Assembly (NCBI GenBank): GCA_022711115.1
Contig: JAKLFP010000005.1
Coordinates: 136,572-200,571 of the forward strand
Direction of reading: 5' to 3'
Origin: Candidatus Omnitrophota bacterium
GTDB lineage: Bacteria > Omnitrophota > Omnitrophia > Omnitrophales > Aquincolibacteriaceae
Length of the DNA stretch: 64,000 nucleotides
The notes beneath the pieces were generated by a model. The model saw only the letters and a list, made by a program, of their open reading frames with translations. It did not search any database and was not told the DNA's origin. Every line of letters starts with the position of its first letter. The stretch's first letter is position 1. The position numbers and the translations under genes were made by a program. Below, in pieces: positions 2,970 through 55,498 of this stretch.

Positions 2970-4406
2970 ATGAATACTAAAAAATCCATGCTTGTCTGGT
3001 TCCGCAATAACCTTCGCACGGAAGATAACATCACTCTCGCACGAGCCGTGGAACAGGATGCGCCTCTGATCCCTCTGTTTATTTTTGATGAAAAACGGGA
3101 TTGTGGGAGTGCCAGCCGCTTGTGGCTTTACCATGCTCTTAAAAGTTTTGAGCGGGAACTTTTCAGGCTTGGAACGCGATTGATTTTTTTGAAAGGAGAT
3201 TCGCGCATCATTCTCGCGCGTTTGGCATCCGAGACAGGAGCGAAAGCACTTTACTGGGATCGTTCCTATGAACCTTATCAAAAAGAACAGGATCAGCTTA
3301 TTCAAAAAGATCTGGAGGGTTGGGGTATCCGTTGCGAATCGTTCAACGACACGCTTCTTTTTGATCCGGCCCAGATTCGTACTCGACAAGGCACTCCGTT
3401 TAAGGTTTTTACTGCGTTTTGGAATCACTGCACCAGTTTGCCAGAGCCGATGCTGCCAGTTCGAGCGCCTCAAAGATTGTCTGGTCCTGCAAAATGGCCC
3501 CAGTCCAAACGGCTAGAGGATTTTGGATTGCGGGATAAGGCACGCTGGTCAAACAAAGTGGAGGCTTTTTGGGAACCGGGAAACGTAGATGTCAGAAAGA
3601 ACTGGCGCAAGTTCCTAAAAGAAAAACTCGAAAATTACTCTCACGATCGGGATCGGCCAGCTCTAGAGGGGACCTCACGTCTTTCTCCGTATCTGCATTT
3701 TGGAGAAATAAGCGTCCGCAGTATTTGGCATGAGATGCGGCAGTATATGGTCCAGCATCGAAGGGCCGGGATCTTTCGTGAGGCAGAAACGTTTTTGAGG
3801 CAAATCGTCTGGCGGGAATTCGCGCACTATTTTTTGTTCCATTTCCCGGAAACGATCGAGCATCCGTTCAGAAAAGAATTTGAGAAATTTCATTGGAAAA
3901 AAAATTCCGCGTTACTTTGTGCATGGCGGAAAGGAAAGACGGGGTATCCTATCGTGGATGCGGGGATGCGTGAGCTTTGGGCCACTGGGTGGATGCACAA
4001 TCGCGTTCGAATGATTGTGGCATCATTCTTGGTGAAAGATCTTTTGCAGCCATGGCAAGAGGGTGCTCAATGGTTTCTAGAAACCCTTGTGGATGCTGAT
4101 GTCGCGAACAATGTGTTCGGATGGCAATGGACTGCGGGTTGCGGGGCAGATGCGGCTCCTTATTTCCGAATTTTTAATCCCATCCTGCAAGGTGAAAAAT
4201 TTGACTCCCGAGGTGATTATGTTCGTCGTTGGGTTCCCGAACTGTCCAAACTGCCGGACCGGTTTATTCACAAACCTTGGCAGGCATCTCCGGAAATTCT
4301 TGCAAAAGCCGGTATCCGGTTGGGTAAGGATTACCCCGATCCGGTTGTGGATCACCATCAAGCACGGAATCGTGCCCTTTTTAACTATGCCAGGATGAAA
4401 AAATAA
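2970..4406 (+). CDS. phrB: Deoxyribodipyrimidine photolyase / cryptochrome family protein
   Basis: The N-terminal WFRNNLRTEDN photolyase signature is present. The C-terminal FAD-binding domain carries WREF and GWQW...AG..DAAPYFRIFNP motifs. Confidence 0.85.
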   Translation: MNTKKSMLVWFRNNLRTEDNITLARAVEQDAPLIPLFIFDEKRDCGSASRLWLYHALKSFERELFRLGTRLIFLKGDSRIILARLASETGAKALYWDRSYEPYQKEQDQLIQKDLEGWGIRCESFNDTLLFDPAQIRTRQGTPFKVFTAFWNHCTSLPEPMLPVRAPQRLSGPAKWPQSKRLEDFGLRDKARWSNKVEAFWEPGNVDVRKNWRKFLKEKLENYSHDRDRPALEGTSRLSPYLHFGEISVRSIWHEMRQYMVQHRRAGIFREAETFLRQIVWREFAHYFLFHFPETIEHPFRKEFEKFHWKKNSALLCAWRKGKTGYPIVDAGMRELWATGWMHNRVRMIVASFLVKDLLQPWQEGAQWFLETLVDADVANNVFGWQWTAGCGADAAPYFRIFNPILQGEKFDSRGDYVRRWVPELSKLPDRFIHKPWQASPEILAKAGIRLGKDYPDPVVDHHQARNRALFNYARMKK

Positions 4407-4522
4407 TCTCATGGGCAATAAAACAAGCTTCGGAATACTTGCTTTTCGCCGGAAAGAGGGTAGTGCTAGAATAGCACCCTTTGGAGTTCCGTTTATTTCT
4501 TTCACAGAGGAAATTCCCCAAT

Positions 4523-5239
4523 ATGAAATCACTGAACAGTAAACAAATCATTGACGCTTTAACCAAGATAAGCGATGCGGTCACTTCGGATCTTTATTTG
4601 GAAGAGATTCTTAAGTTGATCGTTACGGTAACGGCAGAAGTGATGCACTCCAAGATTTGTTCTCTCATGCTTTTGGATAAATCTACGAATGAGTTGGTGG
4701 TCAAAGCGACCCAGTCTGTCAGTGAGTTTTATAATAAAAAACCCAACGCAAAATTGGGCGAAGGCATTGCCGGAAGGGTGGCGCAATCCGGGAAGCCTAT
4801 CACGGTCCTGGATGTCCGGAAAGACGAACGTTATCTCAACCAGGCTATCGCGCGAAAGGAAAACCTTTGTTCGCTGTTGAGTGTGCCGCTTATTTTTAAA
4901 CGGAATATTATCGGGGTGTTAAACTGTTACACCATCACGGCGCATCGTTTCAGCCAAAGAGAGATCCGCGTCATCAAATCGATCGCGAATCAAGCGGCAA
5001 TCGTCATCGAAAACTTCAGGTTGGTGGTCGAATCGCAGGTGATCCAAGAAGAATTGGAGTCAAGGAAAGCGATTGAGCGTGCCAAAGGCATTTTGATGAA
5101 AAGGGAGAATCTGAGCGAACAGGGGGCTTACAAGCTCATTCAGAAATATAGTATGGATAAGCGTAAGAGCATGAAGGAGGTTTCGGAGGCGATTTTATTG
5201 AATGAAGAAATGCAAAGGTTTTCTTCCAGCAGAGAATAA
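4523..5239 (+). CDS. GAF-ANTAR RNA-binding antitermination regulator
   Basis: An N-terminal GAF domain (GEGIAGRVAQSGKPI) is followed by a C-terminal ANTAR domain (ERAKGILMKRENLSEQGAYKLIQKYSMDKRKSMKEVSEAI). A start at 4523 (MKSLNSK) is preferred over 4481 because GAGGAA lies upstream of it. Confidence 0.8.
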   Translation: MKSLNSKQIIDALTKISDAVTSDLYLEEILKLIVTVTAEVMHSKICSLMLLDKSTNELVVKATQSVSEFYNKKPNAKLGEGIAGRVAQSGKPITVLDVRKDERYLNQAIARKENLCSLLSVPLIFKRNIIGVLNCYTITAHRFSQREIRVIKSIANQAAIVIENFRLVVESQVIQEELESRKAIERAKGILMKRENLSEQGAYKLIQKYSMDKRKSMKEVSEAILLNEEMQRFSSSRE

Positions 5240-5247
5240 AATCAGCA

Positions 5248-5275
5248 TTGAAAGTCAAAATGCCTGTGCTATAAT
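5248..5275 (+). promoter_or_regulatory. Sigma70-like promoter for the gdhA leader (TTGAAA, 16-nt spacer, TATAAT)
   Basis: The -35 TTGAAA lies at 5248-5253 and the -10 TATAAT at 5270-5275, both read directly from the sequence. Confidence 0.55.
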
Positions 5276-5379
5276 TTCAACGCTCAACACACAGTGAGTG
5301 TTTGGCAGAAAGAAAGTGAAGCAGCGTTCTGCGAAGAACATAGCTTTATCTTCGTTTTTGGAAGAGAGGATAATGACGT

Positions 5380-5417
5380 CCTTTTCGGTAAAAATTTTGC
5401 CGGAAAGGTTTTTTTTT
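5380..5417 (+). terminator. Intrinsic terminator or attenuator inside the gdhA 5' leader
   Basis: A stem of about 13 bp pairs CCUUUUCGGUAAA with UUUGCCGGAAAGG, including G-U pairs. It is followed by a run of 9 T and sits between the promoter and the gdhA start codon. Confidence 0.65.
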
Positions 5418-5536
5418 GCCCAATTTGGGTTATGCCGTGAATGAAATAGCGTCAGCTCGAAGAGGTGATGACGTTTGCCGGCAGGCGGGTGTTTGGATTT
5501 TCGAAAAGTATAACCGATAAATGAAAGGGATATGCC

Positions 5537-6877
5537 ATGACAAAAGAAATCGATGCGTTCATGAAAAAAGTCATCGCTAGGAACTCAGGCGAAAAGGAAT
5601 TTCACCAAGCGGTCAGGGAAGTTGTGGAATCTGTAACTCCGTTTATTGAAAAACACCCAAAGTATAAAAATGCGAAGATCCTAGAACGGATGGTCGAACC
5701 GGAGCGTGTGATCATGTTTCGAGTTCCCTGGTTGGATGATAAGGGAGAGATTCAGATTAATCGCGGATTTCGTATCCAGATGAACAGTGCTATTGGTCCT
5801 TACAAGGGAGGCCTTCGTTTCCATCCCAGTGTCAATCTTGGTATTTTGAAGTTTTTGGCATTTGAACAGGTCTTCAAAAATAGCCTGACCACGCTTGCCA
5901 TGGGTGGTGGCAAAGGCGGTTCGGACTTTGATCCAAAAGGAAAATCGGATCAAGAAGTTATGAAATTCTGTCAAAGTTTCATGACGGAATTGTTCCGACA
6001 CATCGGACCGGACACGGATGTTCCTGCAGGCGATATTGGTGTGGGTGGTAGGGAGATCGGTTTTCTTTACGGTCAGTACAAGAGATTGCGTAATGAGTTT
6101 ACGGGTGTTTTGACTGGGAAGAGCTTGAATTGGGGAGGAAGTTTGATTCGACCCGAGGCGACCGGTTACGGATGCGTTTATTTTGTCCAGGAAATGCTTA
6201 AGACACGAAAGATGTCTTTTGCGGGTAAGGTTTGTGTTGTTTCCGGCTCCGGGAATGTGGCACAGTACACAGTCGAAAAATTGAACCAGTTGGGTGCCAA
6301 AGTGGTGACCTTGTCGGACTCCGACGGTTACATTTATGATAAGAAGGGCATTGACGACAAGAAATTGGAATTTGTCATGCACCTTAAAAATGTAAAGCGT
6401 GGTCGTATTAAGGAATGCGCGGATGAATTCGGCTGCGAATATGTCGCCGGTCAACGGCCATGGAAAGTCGCATGCGATGTCGCTTTTCCGAGTGCCACGC
6501 AAAACGAGATCAATGAAGCGGACGCGAAGGTTCTTGTCAAGGGCGGCTGCATTGCGATCGGGGAAGGTGCCAATATGCCGACCACACCGGAAGGCGTCCG
6601 GGTGTTCCAAAAGGCGAAGATTCTCTATGCCCCTGGAAAAGCGGCGAATGCCGGGGGGGTGTCGACTTCGGGCCTGGAAATGAGCCAGAATAGCATGCGC
6701 TTGGGCTGGTCCCGGGAAGAAGTGGACAAGAAATTGCATGGCATCATGGTCTCGATTCATGAGAATTGCGTGAAATATGGAAAAGAACAGGATAAGTACA
6801 TCAACTATGTCAATGGCGCGAATATCGCGGGCTTTGTAAAGGTTGCGGACGCCATGCTTGATCAGGGGCTGGTGTAA
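5537..6877 (+). CDS. gdhA: NADP-specific glutamate dehydrogenase
   Basis: Full-length similarity in the Glu/Leu/Phe/Val dehydrogenase family. The catalytic Lys is in the GGGKGGSDFDPKGKS motif and a C-terminal Rossmann GSGNVAQY is present. Confidence 0.9.
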   Translation: MTKEIDAFMKKVIARNSGEKEFHQAVREVVESVTPFIEKHPKYKNAKILERMVEPERVIMFRVPWLDDKGEIQINRGFRIQMNSAIGPYKGGLRFHPSVNLGILKFLAFEQVFKNSLTTLAMGGGKGGSDFDPKGKSDQEVMKFCQSFMTELFRHIGPDTDVPAGDIGVGGREIGFLYGQYKRLRNEFTGVLTGKSLNWGGSLIRPEATGYGCVYFVQEMLKTRKMSFAGKVCVVSGSGNVAQYTVEKLNQLGAKVVTLSDSDGYIYDKKGIDDKKLEFVMHLKNVKRGRIKECADEFGCEYVAGQRPWKVACDVAFPSATQNEINEADAKVLVKGGCIAIGEGANMPTTPEGVRVFQKAKILYAPGKAANAGGVSTSGLEMSQNSMRLGWSREEVDKKLHGIMVSIHENCVKYGKEQDKYINYVNGANIAGFVKVADAMLDQGLV

Positions 6878-6888
6878 GCTTAGTTTCA

Positions 6889-6935
6889 AAGGGGCAGTCT
6901 TCCAGAGGTTCGGGAGATGGCCCCTTTGTTTTTTC
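6889..6935 (+). terminator. Intrinsic terminator after gdhA
   Basis: A hairpin pairs AAAGGGGC with GCCCCTTT across a loop of about 25 nt and is followed by TTTTTT. Confidence 0.55.
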
Positions 6936-6964
6936 TTGACAAATGATACTATGATAGTATCATT
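6936..6964 (+). promoter_or_regulatory. Promoter -35 (TTGACA) overlapped by a 23-bp near-perfect palindrome, AATGATACTAT-G-ATAGTATCATT; candidate Rrf2 operator
   Basis: The palindrome spans 6942-6964 and has a single central mismatch. It lies immediately upstream of the Rrf2 gene. Confidence 0.55.
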
Positions 6965-6970
6965 AAAAGA

Positions 6971-7426
6971 ATGAAGCTCATCACTCGAAACACAGATTAT
7001 GCGATGCGCGCACTTTGTTATATCGCGCAGCAAACAAAAGATTCGGTGCCTGTCACCGAAATGGTGAAGGATCTTGCTATCCCGCGCCCCTTTCTCAGGA
7101 AAATCCTTCAAACTCTAAGCGGTGAAGGGATGCTCGATTCCTACCGTGGACAGGGCGGTGGTTTCTCTCTCAGTCTTTCTCCCTCAAAAATTTTTATCAC
7201 GGATTTGATAAAAATTTTTCAGAATGCCATCCAACTTAATGAATGTATCTTTAAAAAAAAGATGTGCCCGAATCGTAAGACTTGTCTCATGAAAAGAGAG
7301 ATGGACTCTATTGAAAAAGATGTTTTGTTGCGACTGAGCCGTATCAGCATTGCTTCTTTGATTTCAAACGGGAACGGGAAGCGCTCAAATCGAGAAAGAA
7401 AAGAGGGGAGGTATGGTGAAGCTTAA
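6971..7426 (+). CDS. Rrf2-family transcriptional regulator with three Cys ligands (NsrR/IscR-like)
   Basis: The N-terminal helix-turn-helix region has the Rrf2 pattern (DYAMRALCYIA). A C-x7-C-x5-C cluster-ligand motif is present. Confidence 0.8.
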   Translation: MKLITRNTDYAMRALCYIAQQTKDSVPVTEMVKDLAIPRPFLRKILQTLSGEGMLDSYRGQGGGFSLSLSPSKIFITDLIKIFQNAIQLNECIFKKKMCPNRKTCLMKREMDSIEKDVLLRLSRISIASLISNGNGKRSNRERKEGRYGEA

Positions 7427-9086
7427 TAGTGAAACACGCTTCAAAGGGTTGCCTCTAAGCAGTGGTGTTGCTTTTGCGAAGGTGTGTCTTTTTAACGAGC
7501 GCCGCCATCAGAATCCTCCTGTTCAAACCATCCGCACCAAGGAAGTTTTACAGGAAAAAGAGCGCGTTCAGAAGGCCTTGGGCATCGTCCGGGAACGGTT
7601 GGATGTATTGATTGAAAGTGTGAAATCGAAAGTGGGGCCTGCGGAAGCAGAAATCTTTACGGCTCAGAAAATGATCTTGCAGGATTCGGCTCTGCAGAGA
7701 CGGATCTTTGAACATATCGACAGTAAAAATTTTAATGCCGAAAAGGCAATTATTAGCTCGCTTGATTTTTTTGAGTCCAAAATTATGCAGATGGACAATG
7801 CTTACCTCAAAGAACGCGCTTCCGATATTGGAGAGGTTAAACGAAGACTTTTGGATGTGTTGACGAATTTGAATCCATCGTTCCAGTGTGCCAATGAATC
7901 TTATTGTTTGCGGGGGAAAAATCGCATCGTGATTGCTGAAGAGCTGACGCCGAGTTTAACCATGGAATTGAACACGGATTATATCCGAGGTTTTGTGACC
8001 GATCGTGGCGGCGTTGCCTCTCATGCTGCGATCCTTGCCCGTGGGCTGAAAATACCGGCGGTGAGCGGGATTCCGAACATTCACGATCTTATGTTCTGCG
8101 GGACGGATGTTTTAATTAATGGCGATACGGGAGAAGTGATTCTCTGGCCGACCGAAGAAACATTGGCACAATATCCGGAGTTGAAGCTTCCACCGCCGGA
8201 GTCCCTGAAAGCGGTGGAGCCTATCGCAAGCTTAAAAGTCATGGCCAATTTAAGTCTCGCGAAGACCGTGAAGGAAGCCGTGCATCATAAAGCTGAGGGC
8301 ATAGGGCTTTACCGGACGGAATTTGAATTTTTTGCAGCGGGGAAACTTCTAACCGAAGAAGAACAATATGAAAGGTATGTCAGCGTTCTTAAGGCCATGC
8401 ATGGGAAACCGGTTTATTTCCGTATGCTCGATATTGGAGGAGATAAAAACGCTCCTTTTCTGAAACTTCCCAAAGAACAGAACCCTTATCTCGGGTTTCG
8501 CGGCAGCCGTTTTCTTCTCGGACATAGGGACCTTTTCAAAATTCAGGCGCGCGCTTTAGCAAGGGCTTCCGTGCATGGACGAATTCATGTCATGTATCCC
8601 ATGGTGATTGATGTGGATCAATTTCTCAAACTGAAAAAAGCCTTTTTAGAAGATACGACGGGGATTGCTTCGGGAGAGATCAAACACGGGATTATGTTTG
8701 AGGTGCCGTCCGCTTGTCTGGACGCGGCGGAGCTTTTCAAACTCATTGATTTTGGCAGCATCGGAACGAACGATCTTATTCAGTATCTGTTTGCCGTGGA
8801 TCGCGATAATGAGTCAGTCGCTTATGACCATCACCCGAATCGCAAGATTTTCTGGTCTTTAATGCATCATGTCGCGCATGCAGCCAGGAAACATCGGAAG
8901 CCTCTTTCGGTTTGCGGAGAACTTGCCGGTATTCCGGAATATGCACACAAGCTTGTCCGGGAAGGGATCCGGGCGGTCAGCGTCGCTCCCAAGGTGATCC
9001 CGTTACTGAGAGTGGCGATTAAAAACAAACCAAAACTTTCCAGGAGGAAAACGCAACACCTTCTTCTCAAGAAACTTAAAAAATAA
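7413..9086 (+). CDS. ptsI: Phosphoenolpyruvate-protein phosphotransferase (PTS enzyme I-like)
   Basis: The PEP-utilizer mobile domain (GGVASHAAILARGLKIPAVSG) and the C-terminal TIM barrel (GLYRTEFEF, SIGTNDLIQY) are present. There is no N-terminal GAF domain. Confidence 0.75.
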   Translation: MVKLNSETRFKGLPLSSGVAFAKVCLFNERRHQNPPVQTIRTKEVLQEKERVQKALGIVRERLDVLIESVKSKVGPAEAEIFTAQKMILQDSALQRRIFEHIDSKNFNAEKAIISSLDFFESKIMQMDNAYLKERASDIGEVKRRLLDVLTNLNPSFQCANESYCLRGKNRIVIAEELTPSLTMELNTDYIRGFVTDRGGVASHAAILARGLKIPAVSGIPNIHDLMFCGTDVLINGDTGEVILWPTEETLAQYPELKLPPPESLKAVEPIASLKVMANLSLAKTVKEAVHHKAEGIGLYRTEFEFFAAGKLLTEEEQYERYVSVLKAMHGKPVYFRMLDIGGDKNAPFLKLPKEQNPYLGFRGSRFLLGHRDLFKIQARALARASVHGRIHVMYPMVIDVDQFLKLKKAFLEDTTGIASGEIKHGIMFEVPSACLDAAELFKLIDFGSIGTNDLIQYLFAVDRDNESVAYDHHPNRKIFWSLMHHVAHAARKHRKPLSVCGELAGIPEYAHKLVREGIRAVSVAPKVIPLLRVAIKNKPKLSRRKTQHLLLKKLKK

Positions 9087-54546: not shown

Positions 54547-54598
54547 CCTTATCAGCCTATCGAGTATAGCTGATTGCCTATAGCCGTTGCTATGAGCT

Positions 54599-55498
54599 TT
54601 AAAGAACTTCTTCGTTGATTTCTTCGGCGGGATTTGCTGCTGTGCGATTCTTTCGGTGGGAAATAGTATCAACACCTGAACCATCGAGGATGCCGCGTTT
54701 GGATGCTTCAATAAAGGCCACCATATGCGCTACTTCTTTGCTCTTGAGATCCCGCTTGATCGTTTCCAAAGCCTGACTGACATTCATCCCTGAGCGGTAA
54801 AGGAGTTTGTAGGCTTCCTTGATCTCCATGCGGACCTCGGGGCCGATGCCCGCGCGTCTCAAGCCGACTACATTGATCCCCTGAGCGATCGCAGGACGCC
54901 CGCCGCAAATAACGTAGGGAGGAATATCTTTATTAATCGCTGAAAGGGCGCTGACCATGGCAAGCGTTCCGATGCGCGTGAATTGGTGGAACCCTGTCAT
55001 GCCGGAAAGGAACGCGCGATCCTCCACCTCACAATGGCCGGTCAGCGATGCCTGATTGACCATGATGATATGGCTGCCGAGATGGCAGTTGTGCGCGATA
55101 TGGCAGTAAGCCATAAAAAAATTCGAATCACCAATGATCGTAGCCGTACCTTCCTTGGTGCCGCGATGGATCGTGACAAACTCCCGGATTTCATTTTTAT
55201 TCCCGATTTTTGTGAAAGTTTCTTGTCCCTGGTAGGCCAGATCCTGAGGGGCATGGCCGAGCACGGCATTCATGTGGATTGTATTGTAATGACCGAGTTC
55301 GGTGCCCCGAGCGAGATAAGCGCCGGCCATGATCTTATTATGACCGCCGAGCTTCACCCCATCTTCAATAATGACATTGGGACCGATGGTGTTGTTAACC
55401 CCAATTTCGACGTTTTTACCGATTATGGCTGAAGCATGAATTTCTGACACGGTTCCAATCCCTTTCAATGTCTGCGAAGTGGCCCCCATACGGATCAA
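54599..55498 (-). CDS. lpxA: Acyl-ACP--UDP-N-acetylglucosamine O-acyltransferase
   Basis: The hexapeptide-repeat left-handed beta-helix is present, with a C-terminal helical domain. The catalytic His lies in MAYCHIAHNCHLG. Confidence 0.85.
   Translation of the reverse strand: MIRMGATSQTLKGIGTVSEIHASAIIGKNVEIGVNNTIGPNVIIEDGVKLGGHNKIMAGAYLARGTELGHYNTIHMNAVLGHAPQDLAYQGQETFTKIGNKNEIREFVTIHRGTKEGTATIIGDSNFFMAYCHIAHNCHLGSHIIMVNQASLTGHCEVEDRAFLSGMTGFHQFTRIGTLAMVSALSAINKDIPPYVICGGRPAIAQGINVVGLRRAGIGPEVRMEIKEAYKLLYRSGMNVSQALETIKRDLKSKEVAHMVAFIEASKRGILDGSGVDTISHRKNRTAANPAEEINEEVL

Follow-up and report, generated by a model that had tools for sequence, protein, structure and literature searches.

A candidate ANTAR-type attenuator between a GAF-ANTAR regulator gene and gdhA in Candidatus Omnitrophota

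The stretch of DNA analysed here, referred to as the window, covers 64 kb of the genome of an uncultured Candidatus Omnitrophota bacterium, a metagenome-assembled genome (MAG), and carries on its (+) strand a gene for a one-component regulator of 238 amino acids (aa) with a GAF and an ANTAR domain (4523–5239), a predicted sigma-70 promoter (5248–5275), an intrinsic terminator (5380–5417) and the glutamate dehydrogenase gene gdhA (5537–6877), in this order. The leader RNA from 5283 to 5417 is probably an ANTAR-type transcription attenuator that gates gdhA, with the adjacent GAF-ANTAR protein as its antiterminator. The evidence consists of the domains of the protein, two mutually exclusive predicted structures in the leader RNA, their conservation and covariation, and a linkage of regulator, element and gdhA that persists among relatives. 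The original prediction for this locus had described the regulator directly upstream of the leader, the promoter, the terminator and a gdhA gene beginning 120 nucleotides (nt) after it, and had read this layout as ligand-controlled antitermination; its coordinates all proved correct, and the reading itself is largely supported by the RNA structures, by their conservation, by the linkage and by the canonical leaders found in relatives.

The leader as a whole folds more stably than expected (z = -4.4), and a hairpin with a U-run lies between the predicted promoter and the start codon of gdhA together with an alternative structure that excludes it, as in an attenuator. The terminator, described beforehand as a stem of 13 base pairs (bp) followed by U9, is indeed formed by a stem at 5380–5408 with 13 pairs (5 of them G-C) and a 3-nt loop, followed by nine U residues at 5409–5417 (-15.8 kcal/mol, z = -5.4). 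Two alignments were used to judge the conservation of the leader structures, one of 18 leaders including that of the window, whose loci had been selected for synteny, irrespective of any motif, and a wider one of 41 leaders. The wider alignment was assembled with a pattern requiring GGAT...[GA]TCC, so that the invariance of the second hairpin (P2) in it arises by construction and only the 18-leader alignment is unbiased for P2. Pairing of the terminator stem is retained in 99% of cells of the 18-leader alignment, and 6 of 12 pairs show compensatory changes among the 41 leaders.

The alternative structure is the predicted antiterminator hairpin P2 at 5364–5385 (GAGAGGAU / AAUGAC / GUCCUUUU), with 8 bp, an inner core GGAU-AAUGAC-GUCC and a hexaloop at 5372–5377 that has A at position 1 (A1) and G at position 4 (G4). 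RNAfold returns P2 once the 3' arm of the terminator is withheld, at -7.5 kcal/mol. Six bases, 5380–5385, are common to the 3' arm of P2 and the 5' arm of the terminator. Once P2 is formed, what remains of the terminator is a 7-bp stem 6 nt away from the U-run, and the two structures are therefore mutually exclusive. Since the terminator is about 8 kcal/mol more stable, it would be the default structure, and the weakness of P2 (-7.5 vs -15.8 kcal/mol) is what would be expected of a hairpin held by a protein. In the 18 syntenic leaders the core GGAU-[A/G]ANG[A/G]N-GUCC is invariant, with G4 present in every P2 loop and A1 in 14, the other four having G at that position; this conservation, together with analogy to known ANTAR targets, suggests the pairing of P2.

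Hairpin P1 (5286–5302; AACAC / ACAGUGA / GUGUU) begins 3–4 nt after the predicted transcription start site and has 5–6 bp and a loop at 5291–5297 that likewise carries A1 and G4. Covariation supports it in both alignments: compensatory changes occur at 4 of 7 pairs among the 18 leaders, with 96% of cells paired, and compensatory double changes at 5 of 6 pairs among the 41 leaders, with 97.5% of cells paired, while in a control in which the 3' partners were slid by 1–3 columns pairing drops to 28–55%. G4 of the P1 loop is present in 18/18 syntenic leaders and A1 in 16/18. The loop has 7 nt in the window and in 38 of the 43 leaders listed; across all of them it measures 6–8 nt, with any additional base placed 3' of G4.

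Between P1 and P2 lies a linker of 61 nt, 56 of which fold as a hairpin at 5306–5361 (-18.4 kcal/mol, z = -3.1), leaving about 5 unpaired. The organisation of the leaders in the wider family of GAF-ANTAR loci offers an explanation for this insert. There, a P1 of the form GCAC-AAnGUU(A)-GUGC with loops of 6–8 nt is followed by a stem, AAAGAAAGGG / CCCUUUCUUU, which encloses a nested second attenuator (GGAC-AAUGGC-GUUC with the terminator GGCGUUC...GAACGCC-U6), and then by P2 (GGAU-AAnGAC-GUCC) with its terminator; a third attenuator is often present. The insert hairpin of the window aligns with the nested attenuator GGCGUUC...GAACGCC-U6, minus its hexaloop hairpin and U-run, and judged by this alignment it is a putative degenerate remnant of the second attenuator that relatives still carry. 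The insert is missing or short in the relatives' loci L010, L007, L051 and L074, and since homologous leaders with short natural linkers exist (9 nt in L051, 20 nt in L074, 23 nt in L010), P1 and P2 appear to be a genuine pair and the insert optional. Two hairpins closer to P2 were considered as alternative P1 candidates and discarded, GUUC-UGCGAA-GAAC (5326–5339), which lies inside the insert hairpin, and CUUC-GUUUUUG-GAAG (5350–5364), which lies mostly within it; neither has A1 or is a conserved hexaloop.

Targets of ANTAR proteins have been defined as two short hairpins whose hexaloops carry A1 and G4, with P2 overlapping a terminator, and mutagenesis showed loop positions A1 and G4 to be essential for both EutV and NasR (Ramesh et al., 2012; PMC3369931); the linker between P1 and P2 has been limited to 2–25 nt (PMC8164766), and in the definition as used since (Ramesh et al., 2012; Mehta et al., 2021) a single point variation of the hexaloops is tolerated. 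In the window there are two hairpins, A1 and G4 occupy their places in both loops, and P2 overlaps the terminator. The dual hairpin that was to be looked for in this leader is thus present as regards the P2 hexaloop with A1 and G4, whose 3' arm is the 5' arm of the terminator, and as regards a covarying P1 with A1 and G4; it is not present in the exact form of a P1 hexaloop and a short linker, as the P1 loop has 7 nt and the linker 61. The supplementary alignments of Ramesh et al. (2012) yield the consensus SYAC-AAHGRH-GUDB for P1 and RRGY-AAHGDV-GCYY for P2. P1 of the window (CAC-ACAGUGA-GUG) fits the former save for C at loop position 2 and one extra base. P2 of the window differs at 2 loop positions from the nasF P2 bound by NasR (GGAU-AAAGGC-GUCC), a sequence that recurs unchanged as P2 in the leaders of gdhA in L001 and L018.

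A covariance model built solely from 30 published ANTAR hits and nasF was searched against both strands of 83 loci of relatives (419 kb). Its seven best matches, with expectation values (E) of 4e-4 to 8e-3, are the gdhA leaders of L030, L041, L043, L050 and L059, the leader of a glutamate dehydrogenase paralog in L093 and that of a GAF-ANTAR gene in L036. Homologous gdhA leaders with short linkers reach 23–28 bits (E = 4e-4 to 7e-3), and each of the 36 matches with E < 1 has the same orientation as the gene behind it. In the window itself the top match of the model, at 54582–54617 on the (-) strand (18.4 bits, E = 0.014), spans the stop of a minus-strand open reading frame, has a 4-nt second loop and no terminator, and is probably due to chance. 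A search of the 64 kb for further copies of the element with the exact pattern returned the gdhA leader only, and a looser regular expression added two matches without structural support; one-mismatch matches, where inspected, fall within coding sequence. As a separate observation, GGATRANGNNRTCC with one mismatch occurs 13 times in the window (e.g., at 1809, 2726, 9203, 20985 and 52136) vs 3.7 times expected, a count reached in 0 of 100 shuffles; the site that was inspected, 2726–2739, is coding sequence.

The regulator has the domains that such a mechanism requires, as had been predicted. Matches above the Pfam cutoffs were obtained for GAF_2, GAF and ANTAR, with GAF_2 at aa 26–163 (nt 4598–5011; 79.9 bits vs a cutoff of 28.6) and ANTAR (PF03861) at aa 174–225 (nt 5042–5197; 73.9 bits vs 27.3, covering profile positions 3–54 of 54). 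In phmmer searches the protein matches Rv1626 (1s8n), EutV (6wsh) and NasR (4akk), with the ANTAR region aligned over its full length; none of the solved structures among the matches found contains GAF and ANTAR together. An AlphaFold2 model with a predicted local distance difference test score of 87.8 shows a GAF fold, a helix of 51 residues (aa 145–195) and helices at aa 199–213 and 217–236, with which the three-helix ANTAR bundle is complete. A long helix running into the ANTAR domain is the arrangement by which other ANTAR proteins dimerise, and judging from the model the protein is probably a dimer as well. Residues that contact RNA are K143, R168, M172, N173, R175 and R177 in EutV (PMC8934654), and R340, W362, R366 and N373 have been described for NasR (PMC7496416). 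The regulator keeps the equivalents of EutV K143, M172 and R175 and of NasR R340, has the R of the 'ERK' motif, retains an aromatic residue (Y) in place of NasR W362, and has D in place of EutV N173, as do NasR and Rv1626.

By sequence, structure and NCBIfam assignment, the GAF domain is nearest to those of PtsP (EI-Ntr; PDB 3trc, 3ci6) and NifA-like proteins, at an identity of 22–26%. Because of this resemblance a ligand that reports nitrogen status is suggested. EI-Ntr's GAF domain binds glutamine (PMC4848567), and by analogy glutamine or 2-oxoglutarate would be the most plausible ligand here. The label that JGI gives to the GAF-ANTAR family, 'GAF and PtsI domain', reflects the GAF similarity alone.

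The promoter of the gdhA leader begins 8 nt past the stop codon of the regulator gene and consists of a -35 element TTGAAA (5248–5253), a 16-nt spacer and an extended -10 element TGn-TATAAT (5267–5275), matching the consensus at 11 of 12 positions as originally predicted; the transcription start computed from it would lie at about 5282. The scan found 3 promoter-like sites vs 3.7 expected, and a lone promoter or terminator match is hence not beyond chance. The composite of promoter, leader and terminator is taken to be real because it is conserved across relatives: the promoter stands at the same position and with the same 16-nt spacer in 18/18 aligned leaders, and its family-wide form is CTTGACAA-N17-TATAAT. 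Transcription of gdhA from a promoter downstream of 5417 had been named as an observation that would speak against attenuation, and no conserved promoter lies between terminator and gdhA in the 18 aligned leaders. The spacer in question (5418–5536), which contains a ribosome-binding site AAAGGGA at about 5524–5530, shows no conserved structure (fold z = -0.5), is poorly conserved in sequence and varies among relatives from about 35 nt (in L014) to 120 nt. A second terminator-like site at 5470–5493 and a partial repeat GAGGUGAUGACGU at 5463–5475 are kept by no relative and lack a real U-run, and were set aside as incidental. In the same region of the window (5460–5493), GAAGAGGUGAUGACGU is a partial repeat of the P2 segment GAGAGGAUAAUGACGU and shares bases with the weak terminator-like hairpin; absent from all relatives, it may be a decayed second attenuator.

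The product of gdhA (446 aa) matches Pfam ELFV_dehydrog and ELFV_dehydrog_N and, over its full length, the NCBIfam equivalog NF006929 (778.1 bits vs a cutoff of 536), and is NADP-specific as judged by the equivalog score. Its gene starts 120 nt past the U-run, in keeping with the original prediction, and would form a single-gene unit because it has a strong terminator of its own at 6887–6932 (hairpin of -26.8 kcal/mol, z = -4.4, then UUUGUUUU). The next promoter-like site is found at 6936–6963. Directly 3' of gdhA, at 6971–9086, a gene for an Rrf2-family regulator overlaps the start of a gene for enzyme I of the phosphotransferase system by 14 nt; the latter encodes phosphoenolpyruvate-utilising domains and no GAF domain.

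The order of GAF-ANTAR gene, leader and gdhA recurs in 17 of the 18 closest genome loci (79–91% protein identity), and in the 18th the contig ends too early to show gdhA. The intergenic region between regulator and gdhA measures 240–430 nt in the 17 loci, mostly 270–320 nt. Two more copies of the layout came from a metagenome scan, giving 19 related loci across the two scans, and the loci of close relatives all belong to Omnitrophota MAGs; the regulator of the window is itself 100% identical to a protein assigned to Omnitrophota at NCBI. The metagenome scan used a regulator profile and yielded 80 loci at 55–89% identity, and 102 loci in all were used for pattern counts. Among homologs of 58–76% identity, regulator and gdhA remain linked in rearranged orders, with gdhA downstream of the regulator (L030, L066), upstream on the same strand (L035, L042, L054, L076, L079, L088) or divergent from it (L041, L043, L050, L059), and because the linkage survives rearrangement a functional coupling of the two can be argued. 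The gdhA leaders of L041, L043, L050 and L030 possess canonical dual hexaloops with linkers of 6–13 nt and terminator overlap; that of L041 reads AUGCAC-AAUGGC-GUGCAU, cgcagu and GAC-AAAGAU-GUCC and runs into a terminator with U9. A permissive pattern (4-nt arm, ANNGNN, 4-nt arm, 15–70 nt, T5 or more) gives 81 matches in the same orientation as the regulator and 11 in the opposite one in the 102 loci. Two of the clusters, glnA-gdhA-GAF-ANTAR (L042:3-2924) and gltD-like-gdhA-GAF-ANTAR (L088:2-3687), are compact and without intervening terminators upstream of gdhA, which in these loci may be co-transcribed with other assimilation genes and not from a leader of its own.

Genes other than gdhA are also found behind leaders of this family. 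In about 27 loci the gene is that of a GAF-ANTAR protein itself, from a paralog subfamily 55–62% identical to the window protein, and because these genes sit behind such leaders autoregulation is implied. The ammonium transporter gene amtB follows the leader in L070 and L054, and L093 has both a gene for a 415-aa Glu/Leu-dehydrogenase paralog and one with a Glu_synthase domain behind leaders. A sigma-70-like protein of about 175 aa, with weak matches to Sigma70_r2 and to the GerE/LuxR helix-turn-helix, is encoded behind attenuators and next to GAF-ANTAR genes in L022:4923-5447, L042:3142-3660, L047:5673-6194, L048:802-1353 and L049:3967-4500. With PII, glutamine synthetase, a GltD-like oxidoreductase and a GATase_2 protein among the neighbours, the family loci make up a nitrogen-assimilation neighbourhood, which fits the association of ANTAR with nitrogen described in 2012.

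Several observations on these loci stand beside the main subject. The leaders of the paralog subfamily are composite, with up to three attenuators (L080:2765-2937, L025:3230-3500, L054:2700-2900, L060:2817-2940, L076:2795-2968), one of which is nested in the stem between P1 and P2; such leaders would imply multi-step autoregulation. In L048 and L049 a second attenuator comes after the sigma-like gene, along with a conserved protein about 80 aa long without Pfam match. In two loci (L022:5675-6475 and L100:4461-5246) an ANTAR-type attenuator precedes another conserved protein, about 265 aa long, which carries a signal peptide, matches no Pfam family and may be an outer-membrane protein or porin. 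Genes for NadE-like NAD+ synthetases, identified by eye, lie directly 3' of GAF-ANTAR genes (L036:3693-3760, L019:4679-6379), and in L036 an attenuator GGGC-AAAGGC-GUCC with a terminator is placed between the two.

Among known systems, NasR and the nasF leader of Klebsiella oxytoca come close to the locus of the window. Both regulators are one-component proteins in which a ligand domain is fused to ANTAR and phosphorylation plays no part, both targets belong to nitrogen assimilation, and in both leaders P1 and P2 have A1/G4 loops with P2 competing with an intrinsic terminator. However, the sensor of NasR is a NIT domain whereas the window protein has a GAF domain, so nitrate or nitrite are not expected as ligands here; the NasR target is nitrate assimilation and not gdhA; and P1 and P2 of nasF are 9 nt apart, as opposed to the 56-nt hairpin and the 7-nt P1 loop found here. 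The eut leaders controlled by EutV/EutW in Enterococcus faecalis, whose regulator combines a receiver domain with ANTAR, likewise place a dual hairpin over a terminator and allow several attenuators per regulon, and the P1 of the window comes very close to the EutV consensus (G)CAC-AAnGnn-GUG for this hairpin; in contrast to the GAF protein, which is without a receiver domain, EutV is activated by kinase phosphorylation. GnfK/GnfR of Geobacter sulfurreducens and the ANTAR nitrogen regulons predicted by Ramesh et al. (2012) have related targets, namely PII, ammonium transporters, glutamate and glutamine synthases and nitrogenase (PMC3369931, PMC2995071), to which amtB and the Glu_synthase-domain gene behind the present leaders in relatives compare, but their regulators are response regulators, and in Geobacter the control of gdhA is exerted by GnfM at the promoter rather than through antitermination (PMC2995071). 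PtsP (EI-Ntr) and NifA, finally, contain the closest relatives of the sensor domain and sense nitrogen status, yet their output is a phosphotransferase or an AAA+ domain rather than an RNA-binding ANTAR domain.

What is new in the locus is the GAF-ANTAR sensor, gdhA as a target, absent from the ANTAR literature searched, and the phylum, whereas ANTAR antitermination of nitrogen genes is known. The original remark that ANTAR control of gdhA is not a textbook case stands insofar as no mention of gdhA was found in Ramesh et al. (2012), text and supplements as searched; it needs qualification insofar as that study predicted ANTAR antitermination for nitrogen-metabolism genes and ANTAR control of nitrogen genes in general is established (PMC3369931). 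No GAF-ANTAR protein had been characterised as of 2012 (Ramesh et al., 2012; PMC3369931), a review from 2025 mentions GAF-ANTAR as an architecture only, and our literature search found no paper characterising such a protein, the full-text term search giving one passing mention. The RNA, too, does not conform to the motif as usually defined, with its P1 heptaloop and its structured 56-nt insert.

From these elements the following course of events can be proposed. Transcription would start at the promoter at 5248–5275; it could also continue into the leader from the regulator gene, where no separate terminator exists. Without further input the terminator at 5380–5417 (13 bp, U9) would form and transcription would halt before gdhA. 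The active GAF-ANTAR protein, probably a dimer formed via its long helix, would first bind P1, close to the transcript's 5' end, at its A1/G4 loop and next P2 at its A1/G4 hexaloop, the hairpin between them bringing P2 near P1. P2 held closed in this way would sequester CCUUUU (5380–5385) and leave a 7-bp remainder 6 nt from the U-run, so that termination would fail and gdhA would be transcribed. Binding of a small molecule, most plausibly glutamine or 2-oxoglutarate, would toggle the GAF domain between its active and inactive state.

In enterobacteria, gdhA and amtB respond oppositely to nitrogen. Because the same element precedes gdhA and amtB in relatives of the window, the direction of control is not deducible from the layout, and this is one of several points that weigh against the proposed attenuator. 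Others concern the RNA. The P1 loop with its 7 nt is no hexaloop, and the linker of 61 nt exceeds the published limit of 2–25 nt; EutV is intolerant of linker lengthening, a longer linker having abolished antitermination (PMC3369931, PMC8934654), whereas the gdhA-leader family carries a large structured insert. P2 shows no compensatory change in this type of leader, its changes being one-sided only (U-G to U-A). The model of published targets gives 12.3 bits (E = 0.42) on 5336–5380 of the window, with P2 placed correctly and a spurious P1; a non-significant score is as expected because the true P1 is 61 nt away. In the protein, EutV R168 is replaced by Q (as in Rv1626) and R177 by S. Two further points against it stem from the paralog subfamily: in L025–L029 the order is an ortholog of the window protein (76–80% identity), a homologous leader and a second GAF-ANTAR paralog (~60%), and the paralog gene is the one directly behind such leaders in its roughly 27 loci, so that this subfamily is tied to the same elements. 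Both would be accommodated if the leader were an ANTAR-type gdhA attenuator whose effector is another ANTAR protein elsewhere in the genome, e.g., a GAF-ANTAR protein of the 55–62%-identical 'subfamily 2', with the adjacent gene having another or an additional role. We regard this as improbable, though the least improbable of the alternatives considered here, given that the 64-kb window contains no second ANTAR gene, that in the clade of the window regulator, leader and gdhA are adjacent in every locus long enough to show it, and that no attenuator was found upstream of the regulator gene, where the fold of 4400–4522 is unremarkable (z = -0.4). Linkage of regulator and target in cis is moreover the rule for NasR, AmiR and EutV.

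The remaining alternatives dispense with ANTAR control of gdhA altogether. The hairpin at 5380–5417 has to end the transcript of the regulator gene as well, as that gene has no other terminator, and it could be a mere terminator of the GAF-ANTAR gene, the promoter being a chance match (single promoter-like matches, as said, are not above chance, and Omnitrophota promoters are uncharacterised) and gdhA being transcribed from an unrecognised promoter in 5418–5536. This is very unlikely: the position and spacing of the promoter are kept throughout the 18 leaders and its form family-wide, the spacer is variable and without conserved promoter, this leader also stands before other genes at sites without an upstream gene to be terminated, and a plain terminator needs neither P1 nor the insert hairpin nor the GGAU-AANGAC segment, yet all are conserved. 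A long, structured and conserved leader with a three-helix junction also resembles many riboswitches, and one might instead suspect a riboswitch acting independently of protein or a leader-peptide attenuator, to which the ANTAR gene would be unrelated. We give this explanation equally little credence, since a scan of 4000–7500 against Rfam with E up to 10 yielded chance-level matches only, the best being PyrR (24.5 bits vs a gathering score of 54), since the conserved single-stranded bases are exactly the A1/G4 loop positions of ANTAR targets, and since the insert hairpin can be dispensed with, as in L010, L051 and L074. The leader contains a single ATG, within the P2 loop, and relatives with AAAGAC or AACGAC loops do not have it, so no leader peptide is conserved; moreover, dozens of loci have the element and a GAF-ANTAR gene together on one strand. 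An attenuator governed by the neighbouring GAF-ANTAR protein is the reading that we consider most probable.

A more far-reaching and tentative proposal, to which we give rather less than even odds, is that GAF-ANTAR proteins are master nitrogen regulators of Omnitrophota. They would be direct one-component sensors of glutamine or 2-oxoglutarate and would control by antitermination alone a regulon comprising gdhA, amtB-glnB, glutamate synthase, a dedicated sigma factor and their own genes, through composite leaders with a three-helix junction and up to three nested or tandem attenuators, in which loops of 6–8 nt would be tolerated. If this were true, it would mean multi-step and possibly ultrasensitive control, and the accepted definition of an ANTAR binding site would have to be widened.

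Taken together, the locus offers a compact and testable pairing of a sensor, an RNA target and an output gene for a widespread domain architecture. Its natural variants, with short or long linkers and one to three attenuators, are suited to questions of the ligand, of hairpin spacing and of loops larger than six bases, and they indicate that searches with the strict definition (hexaloops, linker of 2–25 nt) miss real relatives of the motif. For Omnitrophota, a candidate phylum represented here by MAGs only, the switch provides a first hypothesis for the regulation of nitrogen assimilation, which it seems to govern across the whole group.

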